From an uncultured Chitinophagaceae bacterium (lineage in GTDB: Bacteria; Bacteroidota; Bacteroidia; Chitinophagales; LD1), in the NCBI GenBank assembly GCA_964398475.1, contig CAYNMP010000003.1:137269-201268 (forward strand): DNA of 64,000 bases. Direction: 5' to 3'. Below are positions 34,989-60,015 of this stretch, in pieces. The notes under the pieces were generated by a model. It saw nothing but the letters and a program-made list of their open reading frames with translations. It ran no database searches and was not told where the DNA came from. Position numbers and translations under genes: made by a program. Within the stretch, counting starts at the first letter, position 1, and each line of letters begins with the position of its first letter.

Positions 34989-35813
34989 TTATTTTCCCTT
35001 CCACACCGGTTTGCGTTTTTCAGCGAAAGCAGTAATGCCCTCGGCAGCATCTTCGGTTTGTACCGCCTTACCCAGCATGCTTTTCAAGAAGAGCTGACGA
35101 TCATTCTCCGGCACCGTTTTCAATGCATCGAAAGCCTCTAAACCCAATCGAATAGCCGATGGGGAATACTCCATAATTTCTTCTGCCAATGCTTGTACTT
35201 TGCTGTCGAGTTCTTCTGCTAATACTACTTCCGATACCAAACCCAATCGTAATGCCTCCTGCGCATCAGCAGATTTCGCTCGCATACAAAAATCGAGCAC
35301 CGCCCGCGATGGCATAATGTTCAACATACTCTGCATCACTTGGAAAGGATATAATCCGCGTTTCACTTCCGGCAGACTAAATGTGACATTAGGAGTAGCG
35401 ATCACATGCGTACAACCACACACAATCAAAAAGCCACCCGCCAACACAGGCGCATGTACTTTAGCAATACACGGTTTATGCAATCCCGAAAACACATCTG
35501 CCAACACCACCTCACCAGTCGGTTCAGGAATGGTAGAATTCGTTTCACTGCCACTCGCCAAGAAGGCCTTCAAATCGGCACCCGCACAAAAAATATCACC
35601 ATTGGCTTGAATCACCACCACCCACACTTCGTGGTTGAAATGCGCGTAATGTAAGGCATAGGCAATCTCGCGGAATAACACCGGATTCATCGCATTTTTC
35701 TTCTCCGGTCGATTCAGTGTTATCGTCAACACATGTCCGTTTTGCTCCACCAACAAATGCGCAAAGGTTTGCTGTTCGAGGGCTAAAGCCTGTTCTTTAG
35801 TATACAACTTCAT
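34989..35813 (-). CDS. Crotonase-fold enoyl-CoA hydratase/isomerase family protein
   Basis: 274 aa. Motifs ITLNRPEKKNAM and FCAGADLK. In a by-eye alignment the first catalytic Glu of hydratases is replaced (LAGGFLIVCGC versus GGGxELA). The second Glu is present (LPEVKRGLYP). Confidence 0.75.
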   Translation of the reverse strand: MKLYTKEQALALEQQTFAHLLVEQNGHVLTITLNRPEKKNAMNPVLFREIAYALHYAHFNHEVWVVVIQANGDIFCAGADLKAFLASGSETNSTIPEPTGEVVLADVFSGLHKPCIAKVHAPVLAGGFLIVCGCTHVIATPNVTFSLPEVKRGLYPFQVMQSMLNIMPSRAVLDFCMRAKSADAQEALRLGLVSEVVLAEELDSKVQALAEEIMEYSPSAIRLGLEAFDALKTVPENDRQLFLKSMLGKAVQTEDAAEGITAFAEKRKPVWKGK

Positions 35814-35827
35814 CTTCGATATTTTTC

Positions 35828-37792
35828 TTATTTCATTTTAATCATCACCGTGCCGGCCTCTACAAAGGTTTTTTCCTGCACGAAAACTTCTTCTACTTCG
35901 CCATCGCTATGCGCTTCAATGGTGGTTTCCATTTTCATGGAATTCATCACCAACAAGGCTTTCCCCGATTCAATTTTATCGCCCGCTTTCACCAATACCT
36001 TCACAATTTCGCCCGGCATTGGGGCAATGTAATCGCCTTCTGCCACAGCACTTCCGGGCTCGGTGAAACGCGGTTTTTCCGAAAACTTCAACGTTCCCAC
36101 ACCCTGTTGTTGCACAAACACTTCTCCGTTTTTCGTAGCCATAGCAAAAGCTTTACGATGATTGTTTATCGTAGCCACTACTCCATGTGCATCGGCACTA
36201 TTGAGTTCCACCGCAAAACAGTTTTCACCCACCACCACATCAAAGCAACCATCGCCTTTGTGACGATATTCCACTTTTACTTCAGCGCCATTCCATTGCA
36301 AAATGTAGTGCTGCGATTGATAATAAATATTGCGCCATCCATTCAAAGTGGCACTCACCGGCTCGGTAGATTTTCTACTTTGCCAATCATATAAGAAAGC
36401 CGCAATGGCCATTTCAGCCACATCGGTAGCGCTTACTTGTTTTTGATACGCACTAAAATCGCGCTCAATTAATTTGGTATCGAAGCTGCCATCCACATAT
36501 TCCGGATGGTTCAACAATGCACCCAAGAAATCTTTGTTAGTCGTAATTCCCAATATGGTATAGTGTTGCAAAGCATAATTCATTTTCTGAATCGCCTCTG
36601 TTCGAGTGCTGCCATAAGCAATCACCTTCGCCAACATACTGTCGTAAAACACATCTACTTTCGAACCGGTTTTCACACCACTGTCGTAGCGTAAACCTTT
36701 CAATGCCGGTTCTTTGTACAACAAAATTTCACCTGTGGCCGGAAAGAAATTATTCTCCGCATCTTCCGCACAAATACGGCATTCTATAGCATGACCGGTT
36801 GTTGTTACATCTCCAATATTCAAGGGCAAACCTTGCGCTACTTCTAATTGCAGACGAACCAAATCCAATCCTGTTACTTCTTCTGTAACCGGATGCTCCA
36901 CTTGCAAACGTGTATTCACTTCCAAAAAGTAAAACGAAGCATCAGCCGGGGAATACAAAAACTCCACCGTTCCCGCATTGGTGTATTGCACCGCTCGCGC
37001 AGCCGCCACAGCCGCATCGCCCATTTGTTGGCGAGTTGCAGCGCTGATAGATGGCGATGGTGATTCTTCAATCACTTTCTGATATCGTCTTTGCAACGAA
37101 CACTCGCGCTCAAACAAATGCACATAGTTGCCATGCGTATCGCCAAAAATCTGGAACTCGATGTGCTTTGCTTTCGGGAAATATTTCTCCATCAACAACA
37201 CTCCACTGCCAAAGCCCTTCTCGGCTTCACGGGTTGCCGTATTGAAAGCGGCTTCCAATTCTGCTTCGCTATTTACTATACGCATACCCTTACCACCACC
37301 ACCGGCACTGGCTTTCAGCAAAACCGGATAACCAATCTTAGCCGCTTCTTTTTGAAAGGTTTCAAAATTTTGATCGCTGCCATTATAACCCGGCACCACC
37401 GGTACACCGGCTTTTTGCATCAATTCTTTCGCGCCAATTTTCGGACCTAATTGTTGTATAGCCGCAGCCGAAGGACCCACAAACAGGATACCCTCATCTG
37501 CACAACGCTGCGCAAACGATGCATTCTCCGATAAAAACCCATACCCCGGATGAATCGCATTAGCACCCGTTTGCTTTGCCGCAGCAATAATTTTATCCTG
37601 ATCCAAATAACTCTCGGCCGGATGCGATCCTCCAATACAAATCGCCTCATCTGCCACAGTTACAAACAACGCATCCCGATCCGCTTGCGAATACACCGCC
37701 ACCGTGCTAATACCCATCGTTCGTGCCGTTCGCATCACCCGAATCGCAATCTCCCCCCTATTCGCAATCAATAACTTTGTTATCTTTTTCAT
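35828..37792 (-). CDS. Biotin-dependent acyl-CoA carboxylase alpha subunit (biotin carboxylase + BCCP; methylcrotonyl/geranyl-CoA carboxylase type)
   Basis: Canonical start MKKITKLLIANRGEIA at ATG 37792; the track start 37804 is TTG. ATP-grasp loop GGGGKGMRIV. C-terminal biotinylation motif NSMKME. Confidence 0.85.
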   Translation of the reverse strand: MKKITKLLIANRGEIAIRVMRTARTMGISTVAVYSQADRDALFVTVADEAICIGGSHPAESYLDQDKIIAAAKQTGANAIHPGYGFLSENASFAQRCADEGILFVGPSAAAIQQLGPKIGAKELMQKAGVPVVPGYNGSDQNFETFQKEAAKIGYPVLLKASAGGGGKGMRIVNSEAELEAAFNTATREAEKGFGSGVLLMEKYFPKAKHIEFQIFGDTHGNYVHLFERECSLQRRYQKVIEESPSPSISAATRQQMGDAAVAAARAVQYTNAGTVEFLYSPADASFYFLEVNTRLQVEHPVTEEVTGLDLVRLQLEVAQGLPLNIGDVTTTGHAIECRICAEDAENNFFPATGEILLYKEPALKGLRYDSGVKTGSKVDVFYDSMLAKVIAYGSTRTEAIQKMNYALQHYTILGITTNKDFLGALLNHPEYVDGSFDTKLIERDFSAYQKQVSATDVAEMAIAAFLYDWQSRKSTEPVSATLNGWRNIYYQSQHYILQWNGAEVKVEYRHKGDGCFDVVVGENCFAVELNSADAHGVVATINNHRKAFAMATKNGEVFVQQQGVGTLKFSEKPRFTEPGSAVAEGDYIAPMPGEIVKVLVKAGDKIESGKALLVMNSMKMETTIEAHSDGEVEEVFVQEKTFVEAGTVMIKMK

Positions 37793-37804
37793 ATCCAAAA
37801 TCAA

Positions 37805-37991
37805 TTTTCAATTCCCAAATTCTTAATCCTTAAACCCTCCATCATCAAATTCCCACTCAATTGCTAAATCATTTCATTCCTAAATTCACACATTAGCATT
37901 TTATCACATTCTCCTCATCATCAAATTCCTTCCCCCATTGTTAAATCCTTTCATTGCTACATTAGCACATTAACGCATTAGCACATTATTT
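37805..37991 (-). repeat. Tandemly duplicated 76-77-bp intergenic repeat, C-depleted on the gene-sense strand
   Basis: Fills the whole spacer between the two carboxylase genes. The unit at about 37837-37910 matches the unit at about 37911-37987. catcatcaaattcc is exact at 37840-37853 and 37916-37929. The longest aligned block shows 40/51 identity. Only 7 G in 187 nt on the + strand. Confidence 0.8.
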
Positions 37992-39587
37992 CTACATCCT
38001 AAACACCCCATACCCCTCAGCGCCTTTCACCTCCGTGTTATGAATCACCTCCATGCAGAACTTCAAGTAATTGCGCGTTTCCCGCGGATCAATTACACCA
38101 TCATCCCACAACTGACCACTTGCATACCAGGCATTACTTTGCTTATCGGCTTCCATCACCATAAACTTAGCCACTTGCGCGCCTTGCTCCTCATCGTATG
38201 CAATGCCCGATTTCTCAGCCGCTTGTCGGCCAATAATTTGCATCACCCCCGCCAACTGATCAGGTCCCATTACCGCAATTTTCGAATTCGGATAGCTGAA
38301 CAAAAAGCGCGGTTTATACGCCCTCCCGCACATCGCGTAATTGCCGGCACCGTAACTCGCACCGGTAATAATAGTAATAGCCGGCACCGTAGAATTACTC
38401 ACCGCATTAATCAACTTCGCACCGTTTTTAATAATGCCCTCTTCTTCATATTTGCGACCCACCATAAAGCCCGTAATGTTTTGCAAAAACAACAACGGAA
38501 TATCTTTTTGATTACACAACTGAATAAACTGCGCCCCTTTGTTGGCAGCCTCCGAAAACAACACTCCGTTGTTCGCTAAAATACCAATCGAATAGCCATT
38601 CACTTTCGCAAAGCCTGTAATTAAGGTACTTCCGTACAACGGTTTAAACTCCGAAAACTCCGACCCATCTACAAAGCGCGCTATCAGCTCGCGTTGGTCG
38701 AACGGAATTTTAATATCAGCCGAAACAATGCCTAAAATTTCTTCAGCCGCATACTTCGGTTCTTCAATCTTTTCTTTGGCGTAATTCGCATTGCCCGGAA
38801 ATAAATTCGACATAATCTCGCGCGCCAATCGTATGCCATCTTCTTGGTCTTCCGCCAAATAATCCGACACGCCCGACACCGCACTGTGCATTTTCGCACC
38901 GCCCAAACTCTCCTCGTCTGTTACCTCGTTGGTGGCCATTTTCACCAAAGGCGGACCGGCCAAAAACACCTTCGCCTCGTCTTTCACCATAATGGTGTAA
39001 TCGCTCATGCCCGGAATGTAAGCCCCACCGGCCGTACTGTTGCCAAACACAATCGAAATGGTAGGGAACCGCGCCTTACTGCGCTGAATAATATCGCGAA
39101 AATTTGCGCCACCGTAATTAAAAATTTTCGCCTGATCCGGCAAATTCGCACCTGCACTTTCCACCATCACAATGGTTGGCAAACCGTTCTCCATCGCAAT
39201 TTCGCCCATGCGCAAGCCCTTCTGCAACGTAGCATAATCAATCGCTCCGCCCTTTATAGTGCCCACGTTCGAATTAATCATACACAGCGTGCCGCTCACA
39301 AAACCAATACCGCACACAATAGTACCGCCAGTGCCAAAGCCATCCATGCCCCAGCCGGCAAACGGACATAATTCCATAAAAGGCGAATCGCGGTCGAGCA
39401 GCAACTCAATGCGCTCGCGCGCCAGCAACTTCCCCGCAGCCTTCGTGCGTTTCAGGTATTTATCCTCGCCCTGAAACAAAGCCTCCTTCACCTTCCCGTC
39501 CAACTCCAAAATTTTCTCTTGCATCAACGCGTAGTTGCGTTTGTAGCTCTCCGAATTCGCGTTTACCTTCGATCGAAATACCGACAT
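37992..39587 (-). CDS. Acyl-CoA carboxylase beta (carboxyltransferase) subunit, methylcrotonyl-CoA carboxylase type
   Basis: 531 aa. Carboxyltransferase architecture with GKLLARERIELLLD..SPFMEL, VGTIKGGA and GNSTAGGAYIPGMSD, co-linear with MCC beta subunits. Confidence 0.85.
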   Translation of the reverse strand: MSVFRSKVNANSESYKRNYALMQEKILELDGKVKEALFQGEDKYLKRTKAAGKLLARERIELLLDRDSPFMELCPFAGWGMDGFGTGGTIVCGIGFVSGTLCMINSNVGTIKGGAIDYATLQKGLRMGEIAMENGLPTIVMVESAGANLPDQAKIFNYGGANFRDIIQRSKARFPTISIVFGNSTAGGAYIPGMSDYTIMVKDEAKVFLAGPPLVKMATNEVTDEESLGGAKMHSAVSGVSDYLAEDQEDGIRLAREIMSNLFPGNANYAKEKIEEPKYAAEEILGIVSADIKIPFDQRELIARFVDGSEFSEFKPLYGSTLITGFAKVNGYSIGILANNGVLFSEAANKGAQFIQLCNQKDIPLLFLQNITGFMVGRKYEEEGIIKNGAKLINAVSNSTVPAITIITGASYGAGNYAMCGRAYKPRFLFSYPNSKIAVMGPDQLAGVMQIIGRQAAEKSGIAYDEEQGAQVAKFMVMEADKQSNAWYASGQLWDDGVIDPRETRNYLKFCMEVIHNTEVKGAEGYGVFRM

Positions 39588-39599
39588 GTTTATCGTGTT

Positions 39600-39780
39600 T
39601 TAATAGAATCCCAATGTAGAAGTAAAATCCATAAAATGCAAACCCCGAACCTAAATCCTTGATTCTTAAATCAAACAGTTAAAATCTCTCCATACGCCTA
39701 AAATTCCATTATCCTCAATCCTATAATTCATTATCTTCCAACTCTTAAATCAAAAAAATTTAAATCAAAAAATAGTTTGG
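39600..39780 (-). repeat. Diverged member of the same C-depleted word-repeat family, directly upstream of the carboxylase beta gene
   Basis: The minus-strand reading is rich in gatttaa / ggaatt / gataatg / aaggatt words shared with 37805-37991 and 57325-57510. About 8 G in about 165 nt on the + strand. The similarity is compositional and word-level, not a clean alignment. Confidence 0.5.
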
Positions 39781-39857
39781 GCGTGTTAACGCGCTATCCA
39801 CTGCAATCTTTGCCTCGAAGCATCGGCAAAGGATTTCCGTTCCTATCGCTCACGCTG
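39779..39857. repeat. REP-like imperfect palindromic element
   Basis: Outer pairing gcgtg (39781-39785) / cacgc (39851-39855). Inner stem ctttgcc (39808-39814) / ggcaaag (39825-39831) with a 10-nt loop. The layout resembles short palindromic intergenic elements I recall from Bacteroidota genomes (from memory, not verified). Confidence 0.4.
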
Positions 39858-40045
39858 CATTGTAGTACCATCAAAATTTATCTTCAGAACGTCATTCCCG
39901 GAGAGGCAATAATCTTATGAAATTGCTCCACATCCTCACATCTGTCTTTAGGGCAAATGCTAGGGGATATGGAGCGACTAAGAACAGTGGAGTTTGTGTT
40001 GGTGGAAACCTCCGATTTGAAGCAAAAACCTAGAGCACTACTTGA

Positions 40046-40456
40046 CTATTTTTGGAGTAGGAATTTACGAATCAAAAATGTTTTTTCAGAATAAATTCGC
40101 ATGTAATAAAAACCCGGTGAAAGCGAGTGTATATCAAAGGTATAATCATGCTTAGAAGGATCGAAATCTATGGCCTTATGCAAAAATTCAGTACCCTCCT
40201 CATTCACAATCGAAATTTCAAAATGTTCGGGTGTTTTATGACTAAGACCAAGCATTAACAAGTGGTGAGGCACATCTACTTTAGCCGAAATTGATTCCGA
40301 TTTAAATAGCTTCGAATGCTTAATGAGCGAATCTTGTATACTCTCTAATCGTTTTAATGAAACAGCTTTTTTAGCAGCAATCTCATGCAAATACGTTTCT
40401 TGCGAAAAGCCTAATGCGCTCCACAAACACAATACAAAAAGTGCAACCGTTTTCAT
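40046..40456 (-). CDS. Mini-protein: signal peptide + short region + T9SS C-terminal-domain-like segment
   Basis: 136 aa. Signal peptide MKTVALFVLCLWSALGFSQ. C-terminal part FEISIVNEEGTEFLHKAIDF...LSPGFYYMRIYSEKTFLIRKFLLQK resembles a T9SS type-A sorting domain. Confidence 0.5.
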   Translation of the reverse strand: MKTVALFVLCLWSALGFSQETYLHEIAAKKAVSLKRLESIQDSLIKHSKLFKSESISAKVDVPHHLLMLGLSHKTPEHFEISIVNEEGTEFLHKAIDFDPSKHDYTFDIHSLSPGFYYMRIYSEKTFLIRKFLLQK

Positions 40457-40609
40457 AGCTATTATTTTACGTGTAATTTAAGGAATTGGAATTTACAGTG
40501 CTACATTTTAGGATAGTTTAAGTATTTCTAAGTGTATTGCATTCCCGAGATTCAAATATCCACTTCTCCCTTAGTTCGAGTCTCCTAGAACTGCCTCAAT
40601 TGAATACAT

Positions 40610-41428
40610 TTAGCTCTCCTTTATGTGTTCTACCCATTCAAAATAATTCGTTGTGCGCTTATGTTCTGCTCCGGCACAAACACTCTCTAAATCGGCATCG
40701 CAAATCACCCTACACGTCAATTCAGTATCCTTATTTATTGTATTGGCTGCTTTACGAGATAGCGTAGCCAAAGTAACCCCTACCGCCAAATCTGCAGTAA
40801 ATGAACCGCTCAGCGTCTTCAGTTGCCGTAATGTTTCTTCATCGCAGCCTCCAACATAAGCCAGTGCTATGCCTACTCCTCGCCATAAATCCTGTTTTCG
40901 TTCTTCAGAAAATGGCGTTATTACGTTAGTCAAGGTTTCAGGTTCTGCTTTAGCGGTGTACCACATCGAACGCCCTAAGCCTTGGTCGTACCCCCTGTGA
41001 AAGTTGCCGTTCAGCCATTCCGGTGTTTTCATTTCCTTCACAGCTATACGTTGCTTAAAGGTGCCTTCACAATAACCTACTCCATCTAATACACGCGGTA
41101 CTTGTTGTAGTTCAACAACCACTTCCACTTGCTCAATAGCAATCTTGCGTTTTGCTATCGCCCAGCCCAAGCCAATATGAATTTGTGTACTATGCTCCGG
41201 AGCCTGTTGCAAAAAGGCTTGCCAGTGCGGTAATGCGAAAGCATTCGCATTAAAATCAAGAAGCGCACGCTCCATGGCAGACGCTTCATACGCTATCGAA
41301 ATAAATGTTTTATCGTTTTGCTCCAATAATGCTATTAAAGTCGCGTCATCCGTTGTTTCGCTGGCGGTTATAGCCGATGCCTGAAACAACTGCTGAATAA
41401 GCGCCATATTCGCAACCGCCTTTTGCAT
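40610..41428 (-). CDS. DUF1702-like protein (unknown function)
   Basis: 272 aa. Segments IAYEASAMERALLD, IHIGLGWAIAKR, LDGVGYCEG, YDQGLGRSMWY and DLWRGVGIALAYVGG match my recollection of the DUF1702 pattern. The start shares one base with the halogenase stop (TAATG, 41426-41430). Confidence 0.5.
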   Translation of the reverse strand: MQKAVANMALIQQLFQASAITASETTDDATLIALLEQNDKTFISIAYEASAMERALLDFNANAFALPHWQAFLQQAPEHSTQIHIGLGWAIAKRKIAIEQVEVVVELQQVPRVLDGVGYCEGTFKQRIAVKEMKTPEWLNGNFHRGYDQGLGRSMWYTAKAEPETLTNVITPFSEERKQDLWRGVGIALAYVGGCDEETLRQLKTLSGSFTADLAVGVTLATLSRKAANTINKDTELTCRVICDADLESVCAGAEHKRTTNYFEWVEHIKES

Positions 41429-57324: not shown

Positions 57325-57510
57325 AGGAATTTAGAATTTGATAATGTGATAATGTAGAAATGAAACGATTTAACAATGTGGGAATTTGAAAATTAAGATT
57401 TGACATTTTGCCAATGTGTTGATTTGATGATGGAAGAATTGGAAATTGAGATTTGGCGATTGGAAATTTATTGGTAGGAGAATTTGATAATTGAGATTTG
57501 AAAATTGGTT
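57325..57510 (+). repeat. Inverted-orientation copy of the C-depleted intergenic repeat, upstream of priA
   Basis: 57343-57377 matches the reverse complement of 37937-37971 at 32/35 positions. tttgatgatgga (57423-57434) matches the reverse complement of 37838-37849. Only 6 C in about 186 nt on the + strand. Confidence 0.8.
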
Positions 57511-57561
57511 ATTCAAAACCATGTCTTCCTTTCTATGGAAGAAATACTAATTTAGAAGCTT

Positions 57562-60015
57562 ATGTCTTCCGTAGTTACGTATTGCGATGTGCTTTTACCG
57601 CTGGCCTTGCCACAGCGCTATAGCTATGCCATTCCATTTGATTTGGTGGAGTTTGTGCGCATAGGGCAGCGGGTAATTGTGCAGTTCGGGAAGAACAAGT
57701 ATTACTCGGCTATTGTTTGCGACATCCATCACCGCAAACCGGCATTCGATGCCAAACTCATCGATTCCATTGCCGATGAATTTCCGATTGTCACCACAAC
57801 GCAACTGCAGTTTTGGAAATGGATGTCGGATTACTACATGAGCACCGAAGGCGAAGTGATGAGCGCTGCGCTCCCTGAAGGGTTGAAACTGAACAGCGAA
57901 ACAAAAATCGTGTTCAACGAACAATACAATGGCGATTACGATAGTCTTTCTGGCGATGAATTTCTGATTGTGCAAATGCTAAAAGCACAGCGCGAAATTA
58001 CCATCACTCAAATTCAAAAAGCGCTGGCGAAGAAACATGTATATCGTTTGCTCAAGCCTATTTTCAATTTAGGTATTGCCTTTACAGCCGAAGAATTTGT
58101 TCCGAAGTACAAAACCAAAACGGAGAATTATATTCGGTTAGCTACAGTATACGAGGACGCTAAAAAGCTCGAAGACTTATTCGGAGAACTGAATCGAGCA
58201 CCAAAACAGTGCGATTTGTTGTTGTCGTTTTTGCAAATTTCCAAACAAACGCGATTTGTGCGTAGGGCTGAACTGCTTGCCAAGAGCGGAGCTTCGGCCA
58301 CCATACTCAATGGTTTGTTGGAAAAGAAAGTATTCGAACAAGTGCGTGTGGAAGTTTCTCGTCTGGGTACTTTCTACGAAGATAGTGGTGTTGAAATCAA
58401 TTTATCCGAAGCGCAGCAAACCGCTATGAATGCTATTGAGCAGCAATTTGAATCGAAGCAAACGGTGCTCTTGCATGGCGTTACCGGAAGTGGGAAAACA
58501 GAAATTTATATTCAACTCATTAAAAAGCAATTGGAAGCCGGCAAACAGATTTTGTATTTGTTACCCGAAATTGCATTAACGGCACAAATTATCAACCGAC
58601 TGAAAAATTATTTTGGTTCGGTATTAGGCGTGTATCACTCGAAATTCAATTTGCACGAACGGGTAGAGATTTGGCATAAAGTATTGAGTGGCGAATACAA
58701 AATTATTGTTGCCGCTCGTTCCGGTATTTTTCTTCCGTTCCAACAATTAGGTTTGTTGATTGTGGATGAAGAACACGACTCTTCCTACAAGCAAACCGAT
58801 CCATCGCCTCGTTATCATGCACGCGATGCAGGTATTGTTTTGGCGAACCTTCATCAAGCTAAAGTGTTGCTGGGTTCTGCCACGCCATCGCTGGAAACCC
58901 TTTACAATTGCGAGAAACAGAAGTTTGGCTTAGTGCGTTTGGAAGAACGTTTTGCTGCCATGGAAATGCCGGAGGTGAAGCTCGAGAACATGAAATTCAT
59001 TTTGAAGAAAGGCGAAACACCTAAAGTGTTTTCCGACTATTTATTGAATGAAATTCAAGCGCAACTGAATGAGAAAAAACAAGTTATTTTGTTTCACAAT
59101 CGAAGAGGTTTTTCATCGTATCAGATGTGCAAAACCTGTCAGCATATTTATAAATGCAAGTACTGCGATGTGAGTTTAACCTATCACAAATTTCAGCATA
59201 AATTAGTTTGTCATTACTGTGGCTATCAAGAGAAAATAGAACAACATTGTGTAGCTTGTGGTGCGCCCGATTTGGACATTATAGGCAATGGAACCGAGAA
59301 AATTGAGGAAGAAATTGCAGCACAATTTCCGAAAGCGAAAGTGGGTCGATTAGATTTGGATTCGGTGCGTGGAAAGCATGCACATGAGCATATCATCTCC
59401 TCTTTCGAAAATCATGAAATTGATATTTTGGTGGGTACACAAATGGTGTCGAAGGGCCTAGATTTTGATGACGTGGGATTAGTGGGTGTGATACAAGCCG
59501 ATATGTTATTGAATTATCCCGGATTTCGTTCGCATGAAAAAGCATTTCAGCTACTCACCCAAGTGAGTGGTAGAGCCGGACGGAAAAACAAACGCGGTAA
59601 AGTAATTATTCAAACCAATTCGCCCGATAACTATGTGTTACATGCTGTTGTAGCGCACGATTTCAATGCAGTGAAAGCCATGGAAATGCAAAACCGACAA
59701 CAGTTTCATTATCCGCCATTTTGTAGAATGATACAATTGCGTGTGCAAGAAAAGAATGTAATCAAAGCCGATAAGGCCGTATTGTATTTGGCGAATGCCA
59801 TTCGTAAACTCAATCAGAGTGAGGTGTTGGGGCCTTCAGCGCCATTAGTGAGTAAAGTGAATAATTATTATTTGCGCGATGTGATGGTGAAAACGAATGG
59901 AAAAACGAAAGACTTAAGCTCTTTGAAAATAGCTATTCGCGGTATTTTAGACGATATGAAAAGCAATGCCGAATTGAAAAGTATTCGGGTGTTGGTGGAT
60001 GTAGATCCGGCATAA
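57562..60015 (+). CDS. priA: Primosomal protein N-prime (replication restart helicase PriA)
   Basis: 817 aa. Walker A LHGVTGSGKTE, DEEHD box, and the Cys-rich zinc-binding insert CKTCQHIYKCKYCDVSLTYHKFQHKLVCHYCGYQEKIEQHCVACG. Confidence 0.95.
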   Translation: MSSVVTYCDVLLPLALPQRYSYAIPFDLVEFVRIGQRVIVQFGKNKYYSAIVCDIHHRKPAFDAKLIDSIADEFPIVTTTQLQFWKWMSDYYMSTEGEVMSAALPEGLKLNSETKIVFNEQYNGDYDSLSGDEFLIVQMLKAQREITITQIQKALAKKHVYRLLKPIFNLGIAFTAEEFVPKYKTKTENYIRLATVYEDAKKLEDLFGELNRAPKQCDLLLSFLQISKQTRFVRRAELLAKSGASATILNGLLEKKVFEQVRVEVSRLGTFYEDSGVEINLSEAQQTAMNAIEQQFESKQTVLLHGVTGSGKTEIYIQLIKKQLEAGKQILYLLPEIALTAQIINRLKNYFGSVLGVYHSKFNLHERVEIWHKVLSGEYKIIVAARSGIFLPFQQLGLLIVDEEHDSSYKQTDPSPRYHARDAGIVLANLHQAKVLLGSATPSLETLYNCEKQKFGLVRLEERFAAMEMPEVKLENMKFILKKGETPKVFSDYLLNEIQAQLNEKKQVILFHNRRGFSSYQMCKTCQHIYKCKYCDVSLTYHKFQHKLVCHYCGYQEKIEQHCVACGAPDLDIIGNGTEKIEEEIAAQFPKAKVGRLDLDSVRGKHAHEHIISSFENHEIDILVGTQMVSKGLDFDDVGLVGVIQADMLLNYPGFRSHEKAFQLLTQVSGRAGRKNKRGKVIIQTNSPDNYVLHAVVAHDFNAVKAMEMQNRQQFHYPPFCRMIQLRVQEKNVIKADKAVLYLANAIRKLNQSEVLGPSAPLVSKVNNYYLRDVMVKTNGKTKDLSSLKIAIRGILDDMKSNAELKSIRVLVDVDPA

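Follow-up and report, generated by a model that had tools for sequence, protein, structure and literature searches.

A nearly C-free, hierarchically repeated intergenic element between two carboxylase subunit genes and upstream of priA in an uncultured Bacteroidota lineage

The STRR heptamers of cyanobacteria are strand-asymmetric short tandem repeats of intergenic regions, which are lineage-specific, form near-perfect runs and in some cases are located inside operons. MIRUs (mycobacterial interspersed repetitive units, MIRU-VNTR) are built from tandem units of 40-100 bp that are dispersed over intergenic regions, operon spacers included; they are oriented with the flanking genes, transcribed as part of the polycistronic mRNA and variable in number between strains, and their small internal ORFs can end on the downstream start codon at a -4 spacing (PMC3184786; PMC12548453). 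The BOX elements of Streptococcus pneumoniae are modular intergenic repeats, in which the modules at the ends are constant and those between them vary in number; they are transcribed and can affect the expression of their neighbours (PMC3184786). In the present work, we describe an intergenic element found in a 64-kb stretch of DNA (referred to as the window), where it occupies the spacer between two carboxylase subunit genes. The element is dispersed (at least two loci), consistent in orientation, hierarchically repeated, variable between strains, unstructured and lineage-specific, and it is neither an Rfam RNA nor a MITE nor a REP. To our knowledge, MIRU-like, orientation-locked minisatellites have no report in operons of Bacteroidota, and a limited literature search found none.

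The spacer and the two genes that border it are the following:

37992-39587, minus strand: carboxyltransferase (beta) subunit gene, 531 aa, taken from the ORF list (Pfam Carboxyl_trans, 4.9e-132)
37793-37991, minus strand: whole beta-alpha spacer, 199 nt, with a sense-strand composition of A72 T63 G57 C7
35828-37792, minus strand: alpha subunit gene (biotin carboxylase, BT and BCCP), 654 aa, of the MCC-alpha type according to Pfam

The beta gene ends with a TAG stop codon at 37994-37992, and the alpha gene most likely starts with the ATG at 37792 rather than with the TTG at 37804, a choice with which the homologues agree. As the alpha ATG lies at 37792, the spacer comprises 37793-37991, i.e., 199 nt. 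An earlier, sequence-only reading of this DNA had rightly singled out the beta-alpha gap, but had given its length as 187 nt (37805-37991); the limits are corrected here. Both genes are on the minus strand. On the 3' side of alpha, genes for an enoyl-CoA hydratase, a BKACE enzyme, a short-chain dehydrogenase and an acyl-CoA dehydrogenase are found. Judging from the Pfam families, including BT_MCC_alpha (matched in alpha at 35.3 bits, against a cut-off of 31), the gene set fits a methylcrotonyl-CoA-carboxylase-type operon for leucine/isovalerate catabolism. Since T9SS sorting domains are encoded nearby, and the closest genomes are Chitinophagales and Bacteroidia MAGs (with beta identity of at most 85%), the window can be assigned to an uncultured Bacteroidota lineage. 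In the protein database, the nearest alpha homologue beyond this lineage shows 69% identity, and there are no intermediate relatives there.

We then focused on the composition and anatomy of the spacer. The C share of its sense strand is 3.5%, and the earlier count of seven G on the plus strand of 37805-37991 proved exact. At the usual intergenic G frequency, the probability of finding at most seven G on the plus strand in 199 nt is approximately 2e-8, and the spacer is by far the most G/C-skewed of the window's intergenic regions. Two related units take up about three quarters of its length (~150 of 199 nt), and a tail completes it:

37912-37988, minus strand: repeat unit 1, 77 nt, identified by TRF; it adjoins beta and reads, in order, 8-mer run, core B-module and GGAATTTGATGATG
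37957-37988, minus strand: run of four 8-nt sub-repeats, TAATGTGC TAATGCGT TAATGTGC TAATGTAG, identified by TRF and by 8-nt autocorrelation
37932-37955, minus strand: core B-module, copy 1, AATGAAAGGATTTAACAATGGGGG
37836-37911, minus strand: repeat unit 2, 76 nt, homologous to unit 1 but diverged from it
37856-37878, minus strand: core B-module, copy 2, AATGAAATGATTTAGCAATTGAG
37793-37835, minus strand: tail adjoining alpha, 43 nt, related to the units; it ends in AAGAATTTGGGAATTGAAAATTGATTTTGGAT, followed by the ATG

The tandem duplication that the sequence-only reading had proposed is well supported. TRF detected a period of 77 with 1.9 copies and 77% matches at 37840-37987, together with a period-8 microrepeat at 37959-37988, and the local alignment of unit 1 with unit 2 scored 38, compared to 9.9 +/- 1.7 for dinucleotide shuffles (z = 16.6). 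Its details could be reproduced as well: the 14-mer CATCATCAAATTCC is exact at both 37840-37853 and 37916-37929, the 13-mer CATTAGCACATTA is exact at both 37960-37972 and 37976-37988, the 51-nt block has 40/51 identical positions (78%), and stop codons occur in every one of the six frames of 37805-37991. The two units had also been thought to fill the whole gap; they are both present, but they leave the 43 nt of the tail, itself related to them. Although the units have diverged from each other by 23%, they persist in all strains.

Read along the sense strand, the element has a fixed order, from the 8-mer run to the core module AATGAAAnGATTTAACAATG, the GGAATTTGATGATG-type words and the GAAAATTGRTT tail. 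An 8-nt periodicity pervades all copies and alleles, with autocorrelation peaks at 8, 16, 24 and 77 +/- 8, and the build is hierarchical: degenerate octamers (of the xxxxAATG or xGAATTTG type) make up ~77-nt units, which in turn make up the array. Copy 1 of the core B-module is the best conserved block across the spacer alleles, the copy upstream of priA and the flanks of the PF05635 cassettes, both of which are described below. Moreover, the last ~20 nt of the tail (GAAAATTGATTTTGGAT) are present in every allele with one- or two-base changes, and the priA copy carries a similar tail; this stretch is presumed to be the initiation region of alpha.

The same earlier reading had taken the spacer for a structured insert and, as one option, for a regulatory RNA element, and neither view is supported by the tests that follow. 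Inverted repeats are absent from 37700-38100. Over 221 nt, the sense RNA reaches a minimum free energy of -20.8 kcal/mol (z = +1.13), a stability that 177 of 200 shuffles also attain, and the other strand showed no meaningful structure either. Because the sense strand has only 7 C, it offers few self-complementary options, and pairs would be almost solely A-U and G-U. At gathering score, the Rfam search of the whole window returned nothing in the spacer, its sole match being Flavo-1, elsewhere; at E <= 10, two C/D-box snoRNA-like matches to the spacer (E 3.9 and 7.3) were dismissed as chance. A scan for terminator-like sites stayed at chance level and found none in the spacer. A CsrA/RsmA-type GGA sponge or leader was likewise rejected, as GGA occurs 9 times against 7.05 expected (P = 0.21) and no hairpins are available to present it, and the ATG count in the spacer shows no enrichment over dinucleotide shuffles.

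Small proteins encoded in the spacer were also considered and rejected, since the mini-ORFs differ between alleles (e.g., a change from AAAGG to AAATG creates a stop), and in no allele does a mini-ORF run past the alpha ATG. The last ORF of L091 and L211 overlaps the alpha start codon through ATGA, whereas that of the window allele terminates 8 nt ahead of the ATG, and the beta stop is not overlapped. Such a pattern would be compatible with termination-reinitiation; only 25% of the shuffles "land" on the alpha start in the same way, but this statistic is weak, since the alleles have a common tail and do not count as independent cases.

To look beyond the spacer, the window was scanned for similarly skewed tracts and searched by low-stringency BLAST, which located one further copy:

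57335-57510, plus strand: second copy of the composite repeat, bordered by an acyltransferase gene (minus strand) and by priA (plus strand), C-poor on the priA sense strand

This copy lies ~20 kb from the carboxylase spacer, at genes unrelated to the carboxylase. Low-stringency blastn aligned it to positions 13-193 of the spacer sense strand with 67% identity over 184 nt (E 1.3e-13), and its alignment score of 50 compares to 15 +/- 2.4 for composition-preserving shuffles (z = 14.4). Unit 1, unit 2 and the tail follow one another in the same order in the priA copy, which also opens with an 8-nt microrepeat of its own; it is therefore the whole ~180-nt composite, and not a single unit, that exists twice. 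In both copies (n = 2), the C-poor strand is the sense strand of the downstream gene, and the element ends 0-50 nt from a start codon; the carboxylase copy is placed between co-directional subunit genes, and the priA copy in a divergent intergenic region.

The known loci are these two. Further copies were found neither in 12.5 kb of extra flank nor in other strains, an nhmmer search with a unit profile detected no additional loci in 1.7 Mb of sequence, and strain contigs covering the part of the window around positions 18-38 kb showed no new insertions. The region upstream of beta, which is also C-poor, was evaluated as a third copy and discarded, its similarity to the spacer being non-significant (z = 1.5). 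A small non-autonomous mobile element had been another option of the sequence-only reading. The part of it that stands is membership of a repeat family, which the second copy suggests may be mobile; a classical MITE was rejected, as were REP and ERIC elements, since the repeat has no terminal inverted repeats or palindromic core. Searches for an empty site, a target duplication or another hint of a movement mechanism found none, and inspection of the flanks by eye revealed no clear direct repeat, with a loose resemblance between TTTAGGATGTAG (before the spacer) and TTTTGGATATGA (at the alpha start).

Strain alleles were collected from contigs of more than 30 metagenome assemblies, in which the beta protein was identical or alpha at least 97% identical to that of the window. 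Spacer alleles of 187, 191, 199, 208, 213 and 244 nt were observed, with one to three units or B-modules. The alleles L212-L218 contain three ~77-nt units, strains L084 and L089 lack one 8-mer of the run at 37957-37988, and "type II" alleles (L091, L211) keep one core module and have a different 5' part, rich in TTTGATAATTTGATGATG. The C count is 1-10 in all spacer alleles, which are thus near C-free throughout. Alleles of the priA locus measure 179-249 nt, and the priA copy of strain L228 shows two deletions, each bounded by direct repeats (AATGT and AATTGAGATTTG), which is the signature of slippage or recombination between direct repeats. In addition, the priA-locus allele of L224 scores 55 against the type II carboxylase spacer and 48 against its own allelic counterpart; therefore, module sets have been exchanged, or co-vary, between the two loci, and type I and type II sets both appear at both of them.

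In contrast to their length, the repeats change little by substitution, and substitutions are rarer in them than in the flanking coding DNA. Two differences separate L214 from the window over the first 128 nt of the spacer, while 21% (beta) and 29% (alpha) of the four-fold sites differ, and 128-nt coding windows have a mean of 8.2 differences, with only 0.1% of them showing two or fewer. For L228, the count is 3 over 179 nt of the priA copy, compared to 12.8 per coding window and to 16.7% in the convergent intergenic region next to it; elsewhere, intergenic regions of these strain pairs differ by 3.5-14%. These values suggest either purifying selection, and with it a specific function, or the recent recombinational spread of one haplotype. 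Because the tract of low divergence also takes in the last ~80-100 nt of beta, the second possibility is as good as the first.

Orthologous spacers of other genera lack the repeat. In 17 related genomes, the beta-alpha spacer is 9-122 nt long and dissimilar to the unit, or contains an inserted gene, and no comparable skewed tracts were found in 143 kb of DNA from related genomes. Retention in orthologous spacers, on which the sequence-only reading had made its case depend, is thus seen in every conspecific strain sampled, with varying copy number, but not in other genera, which are without the repeat. That reading had also named what would reduce the duplication to a local product without function, namely a unit unique to this spot and not retained in relatives; given that the window holds a second copy upstream of priA, and that all conspecific strains sampled keep the repeat, the spacer is not a one-off slippage product.

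Further collections were searched as well. Among the matches listed by a metagenome scan seeded with the core module (AATGAAANGATTTARCAAT), most were chance, e.g., the starts of MKRFNN proteins, and the informative ones were L091 (the orthologous type II spacer), L093/L192 and L117. A viral scan gave two matches, apparently by chance, and BLAST against plasmids and phages gave no match. L093 has a 126-aa PF05635 gene inserted between sdhA and sdhB, with a copy of the module on each side, the two being inverted relative to each other; PF05635 is the four-helix-bundle family, or "23S rRNA intervening sequence protein". Orthologous cassettes in other Bacteroidota genomes, L245 and L246, have the same inverted pair around a PF05635 gene between sdhA and sdhB, the upstream copy running into the start codon, and in L250 a more distant PF05635 gene, located between two acyl-CoA dehydrogenase genes, is bracketed by the related pair GTAATGAAATAA / TTATTTCATTAC. 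The upstream flank of L093 and the window repeats have GATTTAACAATGGGG and the surrounding 8-mer pattern in common, with the same TAATG 8-mer phasing and AATTTGA-ATGATG word. The nhmmer E value for the L093 copy (1.9e-9) is inflated, as this copy is among the seven sequences that build the profile; blastn of the priA copy against L093, which is independent of the profile, gave 80% identity over 50 nt. By this resemblance, the window repeats look related to the 5' flank of the PF05635 cassettes.

Our best explanation for these observations, to which we assign a probability of about 0.5, is that the spacer is a locus of a lineage-specific, dispersed, slippage-prone and orientation-locked intergenic minisatellite, MIRU-like in kind, which is co-transcribed as an unstructured linker. 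Expansion, contraction and rearrangement between the element's own direct repeats generate the one to three units seen among strains, and the repeat would be transcribed together with the carboxylase genes. Its tolerance within the operon may be explained by the near C-free sense RNA, which is expected to form neither stable hairpins nor a terminator, and which would present no C-rich site for Rho loading. Rho loads on C-rich, G-poor RNA, and for this reason the element is probably without a Rho entry site. All frames are closed, and the conserved 3' tail, as the putative initiation region, would leave the alpha start codon open; Bacteroidota largely dispense with Shine-Dalgarno pairing. The core module is akin to the repeat or leader that flanks the genes of the PF05635 cassettes, from which it may have originated. 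The low substitution divergence is not what a purely passive element predicts, which suggests a weakness of this explanation. Together with the sharing of modules, the low substitution rate keeps a real function open, the candidates being a ribosome- or protein-binding leader and a DNA-level site.

The first of these candidates survives best among the alternatives, even if we consider it unlikely. It would make the repeat a functional single-stranded RNA leader, i.e., a portable ribosome-loading or standby region, or a platform for an RNA-binding protein, that secures independent translation of the downstream gene and serves as the leader of the PF05635 genes too. The sense orientation of both copies at 0-50 nt from a start codon, the C depletion that keeps the RNA open, and repeats more conserved in substitutions than both coding DNA and other intergenic regions are all in line with it. 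The same can be said of the B-module, which in L245 and L093 includes the start codon of a real gene or lies directly next to it, and of the module sets, which co-occur at the two loci across strains. However, a leader of this kind is difficult to reconcile with an array whose middle is freely rearranged, duplicated and deleted between strains, with close genera that get by with spacers of 9-120 nt, and with ATG and GGA counts at shuffle level. Moreover, an inverted module is also found downstream of the PF05635 gene, which is a better fit to a structural or terminal repeat.

More doubtful is the possibility that the repeat is a scar, or an ORF-less derivative, of an inverted-repeat-bounded PF05635 cassette, which would formerly have occupied the beta-alpha gap and the site ahead of priA, and whose surviving 5' repeat or leader was amplified by slippage. 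In its favour, the B-module forms the inverted pair around the PF05635 genes at sdhA/sdhB in L093, L245 and L246, with a related pair in L250, and in L093 the upstream flank has the 8-nt TAATG periodicity and the AATTTGA-ATGATG word in common with the window repeats, besides its 80% identity to the priA copy over 50 nt. The beta-alpha and ECH-BKACE spacers of the clade also take in inserted small genes, although the flanks of one of these insertions, a PDDEXK_3 gene in L211, are unrelated to the repeat. Against a scar of this origin, tblastn searches of the window and of all strain alleles with the L093 protein recovered neither a PF05635 gene nor a piece of one, and no inverted partner of the module was found at the window loci, where all copies are direct and in the sense orientation. 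Furthermore, the similarity is confined to ~35-60 nt, and L093 itself came from a scan seeded with the module, among the matches listed.

A bolder and still less probable proposal is that the C-free, 8-nt-phased array is a portable, structure-free expression module suited to Bacteroidota, whose translation does not depend on Shine-Dalgarno pairing. As a mobile leader, it would bring in ribosomes, or else a protein that binds single-stranded RNA, would be invisible to Rho, and would be common to the PF05635 cassettes and to host genes such as alpha and priA, co-evolving across the loci of a strain. If so, the number of units would tune the alpha:beta subunit ratio between strains.

We consider a DNA-level element, be it an array to which a DNA-binding protein attaches or a portable promoter acting on the downstream gene, to be more improbable again. 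At least one promoter must lie in the divergent intergenic region that the priA copy occupies, and the 8-bp phased TAATG words, the TTTG-rich words and the high sequence conservation could suit binding sites. Nevertheless, a sigma-70 promoter scan stayed at chance level, and neither copy contains the Bacteroidota -7 box in its canonical form (TAnnTTTG), a motif that is not enriched upstream of the window's genes and is thus uninformative here. The 8-bp phase does not match the helical repeat of DNA, and so strict an asymmetry between the strands suggests that the constraint acts on the transcript or on replication rather than on a duplex site. Finally, a unique and functionless local slippage duplication is barely credible, for although the between-strain indels bear the signature of slippage between direct repeats, it is contradicted by the homologous, co-linear copy at 57335-57510, next to an unrelated gene 20 kb away, by units that are 23% diverged and yet retained in all strains, and by a substitution divergence below that of the surrounding DNA.

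The extreme and maintained absence of C on the transcript strand represents a natural test of what untranslated intercistronic RNA must avoid, such as hairpins or Rho loading, and in metagenomes the length polymorphism can serve directly as a VNTR marker of this uncultured, Chitinophagales-like lineage. The link to PF05635, if confirmed, would give insight into how abundant, enigmatic small genes settle between the subunit genes of operons. If none of these readings holds, the element would be an ordinary repeat of this lineage, without relevance to what the carboxylase does.

Regarding known systems, the element resembles REP/BIME, ERIC and MITE sequences in being dispersed, short, non-coding and often within transcription units, but these are defined by palindromes or terminal inverted repeats, which it does not have. 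With the PF05635 cassettes, it shares the core module AATGAAAnGATTTAACAATG and a position between two subunit genes of one operon; however, the cassettes hold a ~120-aa gene and an inverted module pair, whereas the window loci have direct copies and no gene. Like the cyanobacterial STRR heptamers, it is a strand-asymmetric, intergenic and lineage-specific short tandem repeat, with the difference that its 8-mers are degenerate and arranged in ~77-nt higher-order units of fixed module order. It also recalls BOX as a modular intergenic repeat with fixed ends and a variable number of internal modules, but BOX folds stably through its complementary end modules and is thought to be mobilised by an IS transposase, while the present element has no complementarity. 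The likeness to MIRUs extends to the ~77-nt units, one to three in number, and the sense orientation; the presence at two loci and the ATGA overlap in L091 and L211 may be further points in common, although an ORF overlap with both flanking genes is not general here. MIRUs have a high G+C content, inverted repeats inside them and tetranucleotide duplications at their flanks, and occupy ~40-50 loci, whereas this element is near C-free on one strand, has no inverted repeats, shows an 8-nt sub-periodicity and is known from two loci in the 64-kb window and 12.5 kb of flank. The two come from different phyla, between which sequence homology is not expected, and the likeness to MIRUs is meant as one of functional class, and not of sequence family.

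The spacer between the carboxyltransferase (beta) and biotin carboxylase (alpha) genes, and another operon spacer of the same lineage, carry whole inserted genes in other genomes:

Strain locus L211, 5204-6112: 137-aa PD-(D/E)XK (PF13366) gene, in the enoyl-CoA hydratase-BKACE spacer
Related genome L010, 5547-6614: 355-aa ORF, in the beta-alpha spacer
Related genome L016, 3262-3969: 235-aa lipoprotein-like ORF, in the beta-alpha spacer

As two related genomes have a gene inserted between beta and alpha, this intercistronic site seems to be tolerant of insertions throughout the clade. By eye, the 355-aa ORF resembles a nuclease of the PD-(D/E)XK / DUF1016 type, and it is a candidate for this class. 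L211 belongs to a strain whose alpha is 98% identical; in the window, the enoyl-CoA hydratase and BKACE genes are separated by just 88 nt. Upstream of the L211 PF13366 gene lies a tandem duplication of approximately 115 nt in two copies (aacgcagaggatt...gtttcat), unrelated to the carboxylase repeat, the strain-variable tandem repeat of the beta-alpha spacer.

The coding strand of the whole operon (window 35000-41000) has a strong excess of G over C, with a + strand GC skew of -0.1 to -0.45 in 200-nt windows, which the carboxylase repeat pushes further, to -0.79. Upstream of the beta gene, Rfam placed one RNA motif:

Window 39783-39860, - strand: Flavo-1 RNA motif (RF01705), 49.8 bits against a gathering score of 42

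The beta gene starts about 195 nt downstream of this motif, which is directly followed by a C-poor tract (39639-39782). According to the literature, Flavo-1 is common in Bacteroidetes, can lie in either orientation and has no known function (PMC9723704). What lies upstream of the operon varies among strains of the lineage: before beta, strain L218 (1-1160) has a gene for a TonB_C-domain protein plus a 60-aa ORF, and the window (39588-41428) has genes for a Por_Secre_tail protein and for DUF1702.

Immediately 3' of the repeat copy upstream of priA, ATGTCTTCC, the first 9 nt of priA, occurs twice, 41 nt apart (window 57521-57529 and 57562-57570, + strand), and may represent a local duplication of the priA start region. 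The segment separating the two holds a small hairpin (TCTTCC...GGAAGA). In metagenome contig L117, an intergenic element (330-405) contains two inverted copies of the GATTTAACAATG module, which together make a hairpin that is nearly perfect (TTAACAATGAGAGTACCCTCATTGTTAA).

Four further loci carry a gene for a PF05635 four-helix-bundle protein ('23S rRNA intervening sequence protein'):

L093, 2290-2772
L245, 1460-1925
L246, 1480-1950
L250, 670-1105

In each case the neighbours on either side are subunits or paralogues from a single operon, namely sdhA-sdhB or two acyl-CoA dehydrogenases, and a short inverted repeat containing AATGAAAT (in L250, a related form) flanks the gene. Gene and inverted repeats together resemble a cassette with ends that could pair within the polycistronic mRNA, in the manner of 23S rRNA intervening sequences, whose ends pair.
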